Shown here: piece after piece, positions 51,891-59,279 of the stretch
How positions within the stretch are numbered: position 1 is the first letter of the stretch
Layout of the letters: every line of letters begins with the position of its first letter
NCBI GenBank assembly: GCA_027078545.1
Contig: JALWXN010000004.1
Location: 128,001 to 192,000, forward strand
From: Nitrososphaeria archaeon
GTDB lineage: Archaea; Thermoproteota; Nitrososphaeria; Geothermarchaeales; JDFR-13
Length of the DNA: 64,000 nucleotides
Reading direction: 5' to 3'
The notes under the pieces: model-generated
What the model was told of the DNA's origin: nothing
Databases searched by the model: none
What the model saw: the letters and a program-made list of their open reading frames with translations, nothing else
Made by a program: the position numbers and the translations under genes

Positions 51891-52090
51891 ATTAATTCCT
51901 TTTTGGTCGCGCTCCTTTTCTTCCCATTCCTTCCCGAGAAGTTAATCAATATTCGGAAAAATGTAAAGAAAAAGAGGACGTGATGGGTTACAAGTATTGC
52001 ATAAGTCATGCCTCCCGGGGGGCGCTGAGTTAAGTAAAAATAGACTGCAATCAGTTTATAACGATTGTGACTTAACTTACATTTTTAAGC

Positions 52091-52684
52091 TTGAAAGGGA
52101 GAATGAGATTTGTAAGTGAAATGAGTCTCGGAAGAGAGACGCAACTTATGACCTATAAAGATAAGGGTAAAACCATTAGGCCTATAAGCGTAACAATGAT
52201 TAATGACAGTTTTATAGTTGCAGTCTATAAGGGTAAGAAAAGCGCAGCAGATATAGTAGTAAGATATAGACAAAGATTAAAAAACGGTGGTTGGTCTAGG
52301 ATTCGAACTCCAAAACATATACACTGGACTGTGGACATTTTATTGAAGATGCTAAAATGTGACAAACTTACTAAAAAATTTCTAGACGAGCTAATAAAAA
52401 TCTGGGAGAAAGATGTTCATCCACTATCAGAAGAAGATGTAAAGAAATTAGACCTTAATCAATTGGTAATCAGTAAGAAAGATATATTGGAAAGGTTTAA
52501 AGAACTAAATAGATATGGAGAATATAGTGTTGATTTCCTCTTATTAATAGCAGAACTTCTCATGTTACAAGAAAAAACAAACTATCCAAGTGGAAAACTA
52601 TTCCTCATATTGCTAAAAAAACTAAAGGAAGGTGAAGATCTGTTCAGTATTGTTCAAACAGCTTCACTTCGAAGACTTCAGTGA
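52091..52684 (+). CDS. Hypothetical protein in defence region
   Basis: AT-rich ORF with motif-like RIRTPKHIHWTVDIL and LMLQEKTNY; start uncertain. Confidence 0.7.
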   Translation: MKGRMRFVSEMSLGRETQLMTYKDKGKTIRPISVTMINDSFIVAVYKGKKSAADIVVRYRQRLKNGGWSRIRTPKHIHWTVDILLKMLKCDKLTKKFLDELIKIWEKDVHPLSEEDVKKLDLNQLVISKKDILERFKELNRYGEYSVDFLLLIAELLMLQEKTNYPSGKLFLILLKKLKEGEDLFSIVQTASLRRLQ

Positions 52685-52834
52685 GGATAATTGTTGCTTC
52701 CTCTACTAGTTAAAAAGGCCAAGCCTGAATAGTTATGTTAAAGGCCCTCGTTACAAAAACTGAGTTTATGGTTTCGACTACATTTACTTAGTCTATGAAT
52801 GGCTCGATAAGGCAGCCTAGTTGTCTATGTTTAA

Positions 52835-54520
52835 TTATTTAATTATATTTGCTAGTATGCCCGCTAACAGACTCGTTCTTTTCTCTATTTCTTCTCCGCT
52901 CCATTTCTTATATTTATCAACTAAGTATTTGGTGTTTAATGCTAAACCCGATTTTTTATAAGTCTCTTCCTTTTCATTATAGTTTTTAGAACCTAACTTG
53001 ATGTTTTCATCCTCCTCTAAGAGAGTTAAATTTCCTATTTTATAAACTAATTCAGGATTATCTAGTTTATCACGACGACTAATTGGATAAATATGCTCTA
53101 GTGTCAGGTCTTTTGAGGGGCGTTTCGTGTTCTCAGAGCTCTCAATTTCAAACAGCAAAGCTTTAGCTAATCTTTCATGTTTTCTTTCCTTAAATAAGAA
53201 TTTAAGTAAACTTTGCTTAAACTCGTTATCCTCTGGAAATAGGTTACGCAGTTCTTGGTAATATTTTTCAGTGTTATTATTCTCAATAAGCTCTATCAAT
53301 CGTCGTATTTTCTTTTCAAATTCACTTGGTGATTTAGAACATATTGTTCGTCTTATAAGTGTATAATATAAAGGTTTTAGTTTCTTCTCTATCTCTTTGT
53401 CGTTTATATTTCCTTTAGGATCTGCATATTTTTCAAGAAGAGCAAACATAATGGGAATGTGTTGTCTTATACCGATGGAGAAAAGAGTAGTTAAATAATC
53501 CACTATTGTCTCTTTCTTCCAATATATTTTCGATGGTGCTGAGATGTTCCTGTAATATATATTAAGAAATCGTTCTAGTTCGTCGAAAAATTGTCTGACA
53601 TCATCAAGATTATTAATCCTCTTTTTTATTTCTTTAAAAATATCCTTTTCTCTTACAAAGTCATATTTGTATATAAGATAATATCTTATAACATATTTCA
53701 GTTCTCTACTTTCATATTCTGAGAGGAAGCTATTCCACTTTTCATCAAAACGTATAACCTGTGTTTGATCCTCAGAATTACTTAGAATACCTAGAAGATA
53801 GTTTTTTATAAGGTCTAGTGGAGCTAAGGTAAGCCCTCTAGCGTTTAAAGTTTCGAAAATTAGAAAAGCGTTATGTTCAGAGTCCACTTCTACTACTACA
53901 GTAATTATATTCTCTTTTATCCCGATGTCAACAATCTTACTTAACCATTCTTCAATTTTCTGATTATTTTTCTTTATTTCTCTATCTATAATTTTATAGG
54001 ACTCTACATAAGTTGTTAACATATTATTCCATGATGTATATTTTTTATCGTTTAGAAGTTTTCGCAGTTCCCTTTCCTTTTTCTGTAAAGAACCTTCTTT
54101 GATTGTTATAATTTTTTCGTAGAATTGTCTATCAATCTTATTAGGAATGACACTTAGTTTCTCATTGCCTACAACATCATGATGACGCATAAGAAACAGT
54201 GAATGGATCCTATTGCTAAATTTTGTATAATTCATATTAATAAGGTAGTCTCTTAGAGCAGCCAAGAAGAGACAGGTAGTTATTAGTCGTTGTTGACCAT
54301 CGATTACAACATATTTATTCCTACCCTTTGATGTTAGAACCATCGGACCAATAAAATATTCCTCTCTAGACCCTTGCTCTATGATATCTAAAATAAATTC
54401 CTTTGCTTCCTCTTTCCAAGAATAGCTTCTCTGATTAATAGGAACTTCAAAATCTCTTGTCTGCAACAACTGTCCTAATGTTTCACTCCTAACATCTGTT
54501 ACAACTTTTTTGTTACTCAT
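52835..54520 (-). CDS. GmrSD-like (DUF262 + DUF1524 HNH) modification-dependent restriction protein
   Basis: VPINQRSYSW, IDGQQRL, FETLNARG, LEHIYP, IGNLTLL...N. Confidence 0.9.
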   Translation of the reverse strand: MSNKKVVTDVRSETLGQLLQTRDFEVPINQRSYSWKEEAKEFILDIIEQGSREEYFIGPMVLTSKGRNKYVVIDGQQRLITTCLFLAALRDYLINMNYTKFSNRIHSLFLMRHHDVVGNEKLSVIPNKIDRQFYEKIITIKEGSLQKKERELRKLLNDKKYTSWNNMLTTYVESYKIIDREIKKNNQKIEEWLSKIVDIGIKENIITVVVEVDSEHNAFLIFETLNARGLTLAPLDLIKNYLLGILSNSEDQTQVIRFDEKWNSFLSEYESRELKYVIRYYLIYKYDFVREKDIFKEIKKRINNLDDVRQFFDELERFLNIYYRNISAPSKIYWKKETIVDYLTTLFSIGIRQHIPIMFALLEKYADPKGNINDKEIEKKLKPLYYTLIRRTICSKSPSEFEKKIRRLIELIENNNTEKYYQELRNLFPEDNEFKQSLLKFLFKERKHERLAKALLFEIESSENTKRPSKDLTLEHIYPISRRDKLDNPELVYKIGNLTLLEEDENIKLGSKNYNEKEETYKKSGLALNTKYLVDKYKKWSGEEIEKRTSLLAGILANIIK

Positions 54521-54991
54521 TAGAATAACCTCCTAACGACTCTGAATATGTTACCTACTAGCTTGTAATATCTGTTAAATATTTGCTTCAATTACATATA
54601 TAAGTCGATTCCTTACACAAACACTGGGAAGAAAGTTCAAAGACTATATTAATTCCTTTATGTAAATAATTATTTCGAACAAGTTCCTCATTTAAGAACA
54701 TGGGTGGGAAACCTATTATAAACCTGAGTTTGCAACACTTTGTCTTATAGGTGTTCAGCTACGAGAAATATAGTATATTATATGCATATGAACATCTCCA
54801 TTGACAATAGTGATAATAATGATGTAAAAGTTTGAATGAATCTTCAAGAACATCCAGGACTTTCAGATAAATTGTGAAGGGGGAAAGGGTAGTCTGATAT
54901 ATATTCTACTTTCAATTAGATACTTCCAACCAAGACTTATCTATAACAAGTTAAAAAAATCAATGAAGAGGCCATAGAAAACCGGACAAAC

Positions 54992-54999
54992 TTTATAAA
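54992..54999 (+). promoter_or_regulatory. TATA box for tRNA-Asp
   Basis: TTTATAAA preceded by A-rich BRE-like sequence, about 29 bp before the tRNA. Confidence 0.6.
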
Positions 55000-55027
55000 A
55001 CCGGAGTCTGAAAATATAGAGTTGACT

Positions 55028-55125
55028 GCCCCGGTGGTGTAGCCCGGCCAGCATACCGGCCTGTCGACAAGTATCCACGGGCGGTCAGCCGGTGGACCCG
55101 GGTTCAAATCCCGGCCGGGGCGCCA
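55028..55125 (+). tRNA. tRNA-Asp(GTC) with 20-nt intron at 37/38 (55067-55086)
   Basis: Acceptor GCCCCGG/CCGGGGC, G73, CCA; BHB helix CTGT/GCGG. Confidence 0.93.
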
Positions 55126-55195
55126 AAAGTCCTAATTATAACGGAAGGATTGAGAATACCTATGAGTCTAGCCCCTAGGATCTCTGATTCATTTT

Positions 55196-56596
55196 TCACT
55201 CTTCTACTCGGGTTATGGAGTTTCTTATTATCTTTATAAGCTCATTATCCGTCACCCGTTCGTCTCTCAGGTTCTTGAAGTCGTATCTGGTGATGATCAG
55301 TTTGTTTATGCCTCTTCCATCTATTATGAATTCGAACTCGAATTGGGGGTGGTCATCAAACACCTCGTTGAAGACCCCCTCTAGATAGGGATATATAAGA
55401 ATAGTATTGGGTATAGGGGCTTTCCCATCATCCTTGCCCTCCAAGACCCTATTTACCTTATGAGCCAGCCTCGAGTAGACATACATCTGCCTGACATCAT
55501 TAACATCTATCGGGATCTTGTCATACCCCTCCTTATCCTGGTCCTTAGATCCCTTCAGCTCTTTGTACTTTACATCCACTACCAGTAGGATCCTACGGTT
55601 CTTGGATACCGTGATGTCCGGATACTGTGCAAAGACTTCACTGTCCCTATTGATGCTCATGTCTCGTAACAGCTTACCGATGGGCCTTTGATGCACCACG
55701 TCATACCCAGTGAGCTCACGCTTCAGCAGTTGATAGATGAATCGTTCGAAGAGATCGTTCATCTTGATGAAGAATCCATAGACCTCCCTGCCCCTCCCCA
55801 CCTCTATCCTGTGGAGGAGTAGTCTCGCCAGATTGTATGGCCTCCTAAACCTCTCATTTAACCTGTTGAAGACCGGTTCCCGATTAGTTGCTAACACCTT
55901 TGTATCCCTGTACATTGTTACTTCGCTCAACATATGTGATATCAGCTTTGCATAGGTCACCGTATCCCTATGTCTAGACATCTGTTCACATAGAGCGGCT
56001 GCCAGACGGAGAACCCTATTTAGTTCGTTATCCATGGACAGTGTATACTGCTCCTGTGTAAAGGTTATGAGCTGGTGTGGAAGCTTCCTAATCTGTCTAG
56101 AGACCAGTAGCTTCCCCCTAAGGAATGGCTCATCATAAACCCTCCTAATGTATCTACGGTATACCCCGTTCTGAAGCTCCCTATAGAGCATGAACGTATA
56201 TAGATACATTAGAACCTCGTGCAACGCCCTCTCAGACACCCCTCTCTTCCTGAGCATAGCATGGGACTCCTTCAACTCCAGCTGTAGCGCTGTGTCGAGC
56301 ATCCTAATGAACGCGATAGCCTCATCCTGTGTATCGAACAACCCTCTATCCCTAGCCCTCTTAAAAACCTTGGGGAATATGGTGAGGTTTATCCCATCTA
56401 CATGTCCAAACCCGACATACTGGTTAGTATAGATGTTGACCTCTCCCCCCAGCCCAAGCTGGATCCTCAATATTCTCTCACGATTGATTACAACCCTCTC
56501 CTCTATCAGGGCTAACTCCCTCTCCGATACTCCTAGCTCCTCCTTCTTAAACGTAGCTCCTGGCTCGTAGATCGCTAAATCCTTAGCTCTCCTCAT
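55196..56596 (-). CDS. mcrC: McrC-family restriction nuclease subunit
   Basis: YVG, IFPK, DNELNR, MNDLFE, PDI...DVKYK, DVRQMYVY. Confidence 0.9.
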   Translation of the reverse strand: MRRAKDLAIYEPGATFKKEELGVSERELALIEERVVINRERILRIQLGLGGEVNIYTNQYVGFGHVDGINLTIFPKVFKRARDRGLFDTQDEAIAFIRMLDTALQLELKESHAMLRKRGVSERALHEVLMYLYTFMLYRELQNGVYRRYIRRVYDEPFLRGKLLVSRQIRKLPHQLITFTQEQYTLSMDNELNRVLRLAAALCEQMSRHRDTVTYAKLISHMLSEVTMYRDTKVLATNREPVFNRLNERFRRPYNLARLLLHRIEVGRGREVYGFFIKMNDLFERFIYQLLKRELTGYDVVHQRPIGKLLRDMSINRDSEVFAQYPDITVSKNRRILLVVDVKYKELKGSKDQDKEGYDKIPIDVNDVRQMYVYSRLAHKVNRVLEGKDDGKAPIPNTILIYPYLEGVFNEVFDDHPQFEFEFIIDGRGINKLIITRYDFKNLRDERVTDNELIKIIRNSITRVEE

Positions 56597-59086: not shown

Positions 59087-59094
59087 TTTTAAAA
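59087..59094 (+). promoter_or_regulatory. TATA box for tRNA-Tyr
   Basis: TTTTAAAA about 29 bp before the tRNA. Confidence 0.55.
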
Positions 59095-59122: not shown

Positions 59123-59279
59123 CCCCCCGTAGCTCAGTGGCTAGAGCGGCCGGCTGTAGCTGTCTCGGCCCACGGATGACTGGGCGTATGCCTTGGGTTG
59201 AGTCCGTGGCGGCCGGCGGAGACAGGGCGATGTCCCCTCCAGCGGCAGGTCGTGGGTTCAAATCCCACCGGGGGGACCA
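59123..59279 (+). tRNA. tRNA-Tyr(GTA) with introns at 37/38 (59160-59221) and 39/40 (59224-59242) separated by a 2-nt exon
   Basis: C1-G72 and A73 Tyr identity; removing both introns gives GCCGG-CTGTAGA-CCGGC; both junctions form BHB motifs. Confidence 0.88.

Follow-up and report, generated by a model that had tools for sequence, protein, structure and literature searches.

The window, a stretch of 64,000 nt, contains at positions 59123–59279 (+) a tRNA-Tyr(GUA) gene in which two introns lie next to each other, separated by an exon of two nucleotides. The computed architecture, its conservation in relatives and the computed folding energies point, with a probability of about 0.7, to a functional gene from which intron 2 would be cleaved first, the ends being ligated, and intron 1 afterwards. 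The carrier is an uncultured archaeon of the TACK group, probably thermophilic.

Identity and layout of the gene

The gene was checked letter by letter, from C1, which pairs with G72, to A73 and an encoded CCA. C1-G72 and A73 are tyrosine identity elements in archaea and eukaryotes. The acceptor stem consists of CCCCCCG and CGGGGGG, followed by A, the D and T arms are normal, and all stems of the cloverleaf are perfect. The Rfam model RF00005 matches the gene over model positions 1–71 with 48.9 bits (gathering threshold 29). The alignment accommodates the anticodon loop only with one 84-nt insert and marks 31:39 as a non-pair. In the unspliced sequence, the 3' strand preceding the variable loop is GCGGC, which would clash with G31 in a G·G opposition. 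Removal of both introns with retention of AC (Table 1) gives the anticodon arm GCCGG-CUGUAGA-CCGGC, with a 7-nt loop and a 5-bp stem, and the mature stretch is then predicted to read ...GCCGGCUGUAGACCGGC.... This arm is the one encoded by orthologues with an unbroken 3' side A CCGGC AGGT (L004, L010 and L006); L014 and L035 have the same unbroken layout with stem sequences of their own. All BHB-defined removals in one and two steps were enumerated and no single step led to a paired arm, which bears out the proposal, made in a preliminary description of this DNA, that two introns flanking the exon AC rebuild the anticodon stem.

Table 1. Features of the tRNA-Tyr(GUA) locus, in window coordinates
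Feature	Position	Strand	Description	Basis
TATA-like box, putative promoter element	59087..59094	+	TTTTAAAA, ~30 nt upstream of the tRNA-Tyr gene	read from the sequence
Exon 1	59123..59159	+	acceptor 5' strand CCCCCCG, D arm, GCCGG, loop 32–37 CUGUAG	RF00005
BHB1 central helix, 5' strand	59154..59157	+	C32 U33 G34 U35; partner GCGG 59216–59219	
Intron 1	59160..59221	+	62 nt, canonical position 37/38	removal enumeration and homologous introns in relatives
Competing stem, 5' arm CTGTCTC	59160..59166	+	partner GAGACAG 59219–59225	
Internal hairpin of intron 1	59170..59209	+	tandem G·A pairs (59178–79/59200–01) on a GC-rich stem	MFE fold
9-nt repeat copy	59209..59217	+	GCGGCCGGC, second copy of exon positions 24–32 (59146–54); pairs with 27–35 (helix X)	
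BHB2 domain	59212..59246	+	outer pairs within 59215–17/59244–46; central helix 59218–21/59237–40; bulges 59222–24 and 59241–43; inner helix 59225–27/59234–36	
Exon 2	59222..59223	+	AC, giving A38 and C39 in the mature tRNA; restores the G31-C39 pair	
Intron 2	59224..59242	+	19 nt, non-canonical position 39/40	strict BHB
Exon 3	59243..59279	+	CGGC (40–43), variable loop AGGTC, T arm, acceptor 3' strand, A73, CCA	

A single long intron is the default output of both programs used, with 81–84 nt in Infernal and 78 nt in ARAGORN -i, and would leave a mature tRNA tolerating a 31:39 G·G or an aberrant loop. This solution is nevertheless very improbable. There is no BHB at those boundaries, where the bases facing CUGU would be CCCU, and the enumeration offers it no one-step route to a paired arm. 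The relatives encode C39 and a perfect stem, and a single intron would offer no explanation for the conserved strict BHB at 39/40. The stretch ...CUGUAGACCGGC... in the mature tRNA would be incompatible with a single long intron.

As the preliminary description anticipated, gene finders mishandle the locus: ARAGORN in default mode misses it, ARAGORN -i reports a single 78-nt intron that yields a nonsensical loop, and Infernal shows a single insert. With ARAGORN failing on the gene in either mode and intron 2 hidden in a simple match to the covariance model, the sole tRNA-Tyr of such genomes can be mis-annotated. No other tRNA-Tyr was called in the genome, which has 1.24 Mb and an estimated completeness of 92%. 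Compared with the other tRNAs of this genome, the Rfam score is low, as it might be for a decaying pseudogene in which the motifs are remnants. This can hardly be believed of the sole tRNA-Tyr gene found in the genome, with every cloverleaf stem perfect and an architecture that is kept, with a compensatory change, across orthologues that are 75–97% identical.

A strict BHB motif at position 39/40

Generic BHB scans allowing G·U pairs or one mismatch returned about 2,000 matches in the 157-nt gene, and ARAGORN accepted about 15,000 artificial splice products. As relaxed motif matching alone is uninformative, strict criteria, shuffles and comparison with relatives were used. The comparison rests on six sequences, designated type A: the gene of this genome, those of the congeners G002 and G004, that of the MAG L032, and those of the metagenome contigs L045 and L077. 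The strict archaeal BHB (hBHBh') is described in the cited passages of PMC3239211 as a 3-4-3 arrangement, with a 4-bp central helix and two 3-nt bulges on opposite strands.

In the motif of intron 2 (BHB2), the 5' strand of the central helix, GGAG, is provided by the final four bases of intron 1 and pairs with CUCC. The bulges are AC|A and AG|C, and the inner helix GGG/CCC closes a 6-nt loop. The strict core, that is, the 4-bp central helix with two 3-nt bulges, surrounds intron 2 in all six sequences, with one G·U pair in L077. The inner helix h' has 3 bp in every sequence. The outer helix h has 3 bp in four of the six, where it is formed by the three bases preceding GGAG and the GGC of the stem strand; in this genome and in G002 it consists of C-G, G·G and G-C, the other register giving 4 bp with a 2x2 loop. 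Cleavage was placed after the second bulge base on each strand, a rule that was checked on three single-intron relatives, where it leads to CUGU/GCAG or CUGU/ACAG helices. From this geometry we infer that the splicing endonuclease would cut at the bulges of intron 2.

A strict BHB ending exactly before CGGC and supplying C39 arose in 0–2 of 500 dinucleotide shuffles of the insert, for each gene. Unconstrained folding at 37 °C gave the central helix of BHB2 a probability of 0.87–1.0 in the four precursors folded, the value for this genome being 0.87. Across the six sequences, 96.7% of the cells of the BHB2 pairing are paired, versus 50–69% with slid partners. The central helix is invariant except for one change from G-C to G·U. 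The third inner pair is G-C in four sequences, U-A in one and A-U in another, so that one pair has changed on both sides, while the loop varies in length and sequence and the 3' bulge is AG, AA or AU. The covariation is modest, with 16 of 500 shuffles reaching the score observed for these six sequences. The quality initially ascribed to this motif is thus upheld by its strict geometry, its retention in six sequences and its rarity in shuffles. The exon AC is likewise kept in all six.

The 9-nt repeat offers a different choice of exon, in which the upstream CCGGC (59213–17), preceded by G38, would form the 3' side of the anticodon stem after removal of a 52-nt intron at 37/38 and of a 29-nt intron following the stem. 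The enumeration does yield the 52-nt removal, with a 5-bp outer helix drawn from the repeat (59146–54/59209–17). Its central helix, however, has three G·U pairs and the second removal requires a mismatched helix. The product has G38 where all relatives have A38, and the conserved BHB2 is ignored. We give this choice next to no likelihood and retain AC as exon 2.

The canonical intron and its relaxed motif

At the canonical position, the central helix (BHB1) that joins bases 32–35 to the intron bases preceding the last two is present. It pairs CUGU with GCGG as C-G, U·G, G-C and U·G, hence with two G·U pairs, and is flanked by the bulges AG|C and AG|A. The motif is classed as relaxed (hBH / HBh'). 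Four of the six sequences have a U·U or U·C mismatch at the fourth pair, and the length of the inner helix varies between 2 and 5 bp. In the precursor, the inner helix has 2 bp and the outer helix, which is the anticodon stem, a single bp; the latter reaches 5 bp after removal of intron 2. The 3' strand of BHB1 shares G59218 and G59219 with the GGAG of BHB2, and its 3' bulge falls inside the BHB2 helix. For these reasons, the two motifs cannot be present simultaneously in one molecule. The coordinates therefore confirm, through an overlap of 2 nt, the mutual exclusivity that had been put forward, and the growth of the outer helix agrees with the suggested reliance of BHB1 on an anticodon stem that is complete only once intron 2 has been removed.

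Unconstrained folding never predicted the BHB1 central helix, in the precursor or in the intermediate. The canonical BHB helices of single-intron relatives were also predicted weakly by the same procedure (probability ≤0.2), so that unconstrained prediction is not discriminating for such helices. Other placements were considered and rejected. The repeated AG permits intron 1 to be shifted to 35/36 or 36/37; no helix is then found in this genome, and at 35/36 in relatives a 4-bp helix is found but the anticodon stem is destroyed. With CUGU/ACAG (59222–25) as the central helix, the 3' cut falls at a useless place.

In the hairpin of intron 1, all six aligned sequences share UGA on the 3' side. 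The hairpin also contains two strict BHB-like motifs, within window 59172–59210 (gene positions 55–88 and 56–87); they are probably due to chance, as motifs of comparable quality occur in ~37% of shuffles. No paralogue of either intron was found in the genome, so nothing points to a recent transposition of introns.

Among the proteins encoded by the genome is an unambiguous catalytic subunit of EndA (TIGR00324, 99 bits; PF01974, 102 bits). A second EndA-like protein of 184 aa gives weak matches, with 18–34 bits that lie below the curated cut-offs, and aligns to the structural half of two-repeat enzymes. The two genes are located at L144:1462–2094 (-) and L148:1222–1776 (+). To judge from these matches, the two proteins would fit an alpha-beta heterotetramer of broad specificity. 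Endonucleases of this type accept relaxed motifs, according to the cited passages of PMC3239211.

Order of intron removal

The cost of each motif was calculated as the free energy (kcal/mol) of adopting it while the acceptor, D and T stems are enforced; the values are nearest-neighbour estimates. In the precursor, BHB2 costs +1.4 to +3.5 kcal/mol and BHB1 +4.8 to +25.6 kcal/mol. In the gene of this genome at 80 °C, the cost of BHB1 decreases from +6.5 in the precursor to +3.9 once intron 2 is gone. At the same temperature, the canonical BHB of single-intron relatives costs +2.4 to +3.7 kcal/mol. For this gene and temperature, the model would thus bring BHB1 close to the range of canonical substrates after removal of intron 2. 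L032 and L077 differ in that BHB1 remains costly in the calculation even then. If intron 1 were removed first, BHB2 would cost +6.2 to +10 kcal/mol and GGAG would become GUAG, with a U·C mismatch inside the helix of intron 2. Among all the removals enumerated, intron 2 followed by intron 1 is the sole route without a mismatch in either central helix. In silico, one BHB was found unable to form until the other intron has been removed.

The energetics favour intron 2 first in five of the five sequences tested, and in these models intron 2 is probably removed before intron 1. The preliminary description held that the order is forced. The order itself agrees with the energies; that it is compulsory is an inference.

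In the proposed scheme, the precursor would form a self-contained BHB hairpin spanning the 3' end of intron 1, the two bases of exon 2, intron 2 itself and the downstream strand of the anticodon stem. The endonuclease would cut after C39 and before C40, and a ligase would join the ends. With intron 2 gone, the five-pair anticodon stem could form and would complete the relaxed BHB at 37/38, from which intron 1 would then be excised via CUGU/GCGG and its two bulges. The reverse order would be disfavoured because BHB1 in the precursor has no outer helix beyond its single pair and competes for G59218 and G59219, and because the U·C mismatch would enter the middle of the intron 2 helix.

The same two introns might also be removed in either order, or by four cuts in one encounter with the enzyme, the overlap of the motifs being a by-product of an intron landing beside another. 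Such freedom is unlikely, although it has points in its favour. Enzymes of the alpha-beta type accept motifs without one flanking helix or bulge, as stated in the cited passages of PMC3239211; the intron 2 motif on the reverse path retains three of its four central pairs, the inner helix and a 3-bp outer helix; and for three carriers at 80 °C, the computed costs of the two motifs in the precursor lie only ~3–5 kcal/mol apart. However, motifs that share two bases cannot coexist, BHB1 with its short flanking helices in the precursor costs 3–22 kcal/mol above BHB2, and the second step of the reverse path should fail when a U·C mismatch interrupts its 4-bp central helix. Removal of intron 2 before intron 1 is therefore preferred.

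After removal of intron 2, the model prefers other structures to BHB1, either a 9-bp duplex between positions 27–35 and 59209–17 (the GCGGCCGGC repeat) or a pseudo-arm GCCGG-(loop)-CCGGC. The pseudo-arm is preferred in relatives, with 5–7 bp, and has 7 bp in G004. Because of these structures, a refolding must be assumed for the intron 1 step.

The pseudo-arm, at window positions 59212–59246 in this genome, would be built from the end of intron 1 together with exons 2 and 3. In L032 (2056–2208), it reads GCCGG CUGGAGA CCGGC and is one base away from the true arm. A splicing route through the pseudo-arm, which would place the anticodon GGA on a tyrosine body, was tried and rejected. Its helix CCGG/CCGG is perfect in L003 and L032, contains one G·U in L045 and has one mismatch in L077. 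As it lacks an outer helix and its inner helix does not exceed 1 bp, this route is probably a by-product of the repeat and not used.

The 7-bp stem CTGTCTC/GAGACAG had been thought to mask both splice sites. The stem does exist, with a cost of +2.5 to +3.4 kcal/mol, but the 4-nt insertion that creates it is confined to this genome and G002, the other four carriers lacking it. It is consequently not a designed mask, and on this distribution the competitor is regarded as apparently incidental.

Distribution in relatives

The exact two-intron architecture was found in three of the 185,579 species genomes searched. In a sample of 401 genomes of the class, it occurs in three of the five genomes of the genus and in none of the 396 others. 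The genes of the two congeners that share it are 97% (G002) and 75% (G004) identical to that of this genome. The remaining congeners, G001 and G003, have a different second insertion, and other genera of the family a single canonical intron, which indicates a fast turnover of intron content at this locus.

Two congeneric tRNA-Tyr genes of type B, L004:1391–1536 (-) and L010:375–520 (-), have a canonical intron ending in GCAGAU|A followed by 25 extra nucleotides with a duplicated ACCGGC. A metagenomic tRNA-Tyr gene, L109:281–434 (+), keeps A CCGGC intact and contains an insert of 84 nt, the 3' end of which misfits a canonical BHB. This insert probably carries a nested inner intron around a hairpin CCGGG...CCCGG. 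No convincing BHB solution was found for L004, L010 or L109.

An intron segment facing the anticodon

A segment of intron 1 pairs with exon positions 22/24–34 in a duplex of 10–13 bp in 10–11 of 12 orthologues. This guide-like region corresponds to window 59146–59224 and is also seen in L003, L032, L045, L077, L004, L010, L006 and L014. U35 is left unpaired by the duplex in most orthologues; it forms a U·G wobble in this genome, in G002 and in three others. In 10 of 12 orthologues, ACA is found 14–16 nt from the start of the segment. With the partner of G34 as the starting point, the spacing is 12–13 nt in most type-A genes, 14 nt in L077 and 14 nt in types B and C. In the two-intron genes, this ACA is made up of A38, C39 and the base that opens intron 2, and is therefore the 5' bulge of BHB2. 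Five of the six type-A genes carry tandem G·A pairs in the hairpin that lies above the duplex. The genome contains Gar1 and a weak TruD/Pus7-like ORF.

In archaeal H/ACA RNAs, ACA lies 14–16 nt downstream of the target-facing position and a K-turn or K-loop 5–6 nt above the pocket (PMC7991803). In Sulfolobales and Aeropyrum, formation of pseudouridine-35 in pre-tRNA-Tyr is guided by an H/ACA sRNA (PMC2651775). The present case resembles it in that a tRNA-Tyr(GUA) precursor has U35 beside an exon–intron duplex followed by ACA. It differs in that the guide of Sulfolobales and Aeropyrum is a separate RNA acting in trans (PMC2651775), whereas any guide would here be the intron itself, and two of three H/ACA features are missing. 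In place of a K-turn or K-loop, the G·A pairs follow a 7–8-bp stem and have no 3-nt bulge on the expected strand. Of a two-sided pocket, only the 3' guide-like strand is found, and the lower stem would be exon positions 22–26. At E ≤ 1, none of the Rfam families for H/ACA or C/D RNAs gave a match. Moreover, ACAG is the complement of CUGU, which offers a trivial explanation for an ACA near the end of the intron.

That intron 1 is a built-in guide or chaperone element acting in cis on U35, the conserved pseudouridine site of tRNA-Tyr, is consequently a speculative proposal of low probability. If it were true, excision of intron 2 would destroy the ACA and free the 3' strand of the anticodon stem, and the gene would follow a fixed programme in which U35 is modified, intron 2 is removed and intron 1 is removed last.

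Relation to known intron arrangements

That archaeal tRNA introns lying close together or nested have to be removed one after the other has already been described, in cited passages of PMC3978253 and PMC3728597 that refer to Sugahara 2007 and Tocchini-Valentini 2009. The same situation of interdependent introns appears in cited passages of PMC8450103, where tRNAscan-SE 2.0 is said to search introns iteratively for that reason. The unusualness initially attributed to interdependent splicing was thus overstated, since sequential removal is published and an annotation program iterates to deal with such cases. The tRNA-Tyr gene clearly exemplifies an arrangement already known in archaea and is in that sense expected. 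The current understanding of tRNA splicing is unchanged, because sequential removal of interdependent introns had been described before.

Like the nested or close-intron tRNAs in those published passages, the gene has two BHB introns, one motif of which exists only after the other intron has been excised, the genome seemingly encodes an endonuclease of broad specificity, and finders need iterative intron removal. Unlike the nested introns described there, those of tRNA-Tyr lie side by side and not one inside the other, with 2 nt between them, and the whole 5' half of the intron 2 motif, both central and outer strand, is the 3' end of the canonical intron.

The pre-tRNA-Pro(GGG) of ARMAN-2 also carries two closely adjacent introns in its T loop (53/54 and 59/60), each with its own BHB. 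The intervening exon has 6 nt there and 2 nt in tRNA-Tyr, and the cited passages on that gene do not describe interdependence of the motifs (PMC3239211). In nuclear pre-tRNAs of Cyanidioschyzon merolae, the non-canonical intron with the more stable BHB leaves first and the one at 37/38 last, as was established by RT-PCR of the intermediates (PMC3728597). The order predicted for tRNA-Tyr is alike. The motifs of C. merolae, however, fold independently and the order follows their stability (PMC3728597), whereas those of tRNA-Tyr are mutually exclusive. A full-text literature search, which did not cover the primary intron papers, returned nothing relevant on a microexon in a BHB context.

What the gene adds to a known principle is the 2-nt exon, the side-by-side placement of the introns and a non-canonical motif that takes its 5' half from its neighbour. 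It constitutes a clean, conserved natural substrate for the handling of overlapping motifs by the endonuclease, combining this exon with a strict motif, part of which belongs to the adjacent intron, and a relaxed canonical one that would appear afterwards.

Other tRNA loci

A further tRNA gene of the window, at 55028–55122 (Rfam, 51 bits), is missed by ARAGORN in default mode and called tRNA-Asp with a 20-nt intron by ARAGORN -i. Between tRNA genes, positions 52001–56000 of the window have a GC content of 0.36, versus 0.44–0.55 elsewhere in the window. Outside the window, on contig 4, ARAGORN -i reports a tRNA-Gly at 317619–319005 and a tRNA-Lys at 923786–924584, with 'introns' of 1288 and 704 nt. 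These long 'introns' could be false joins, or the genes could be tRNA halves split by an inserted element.
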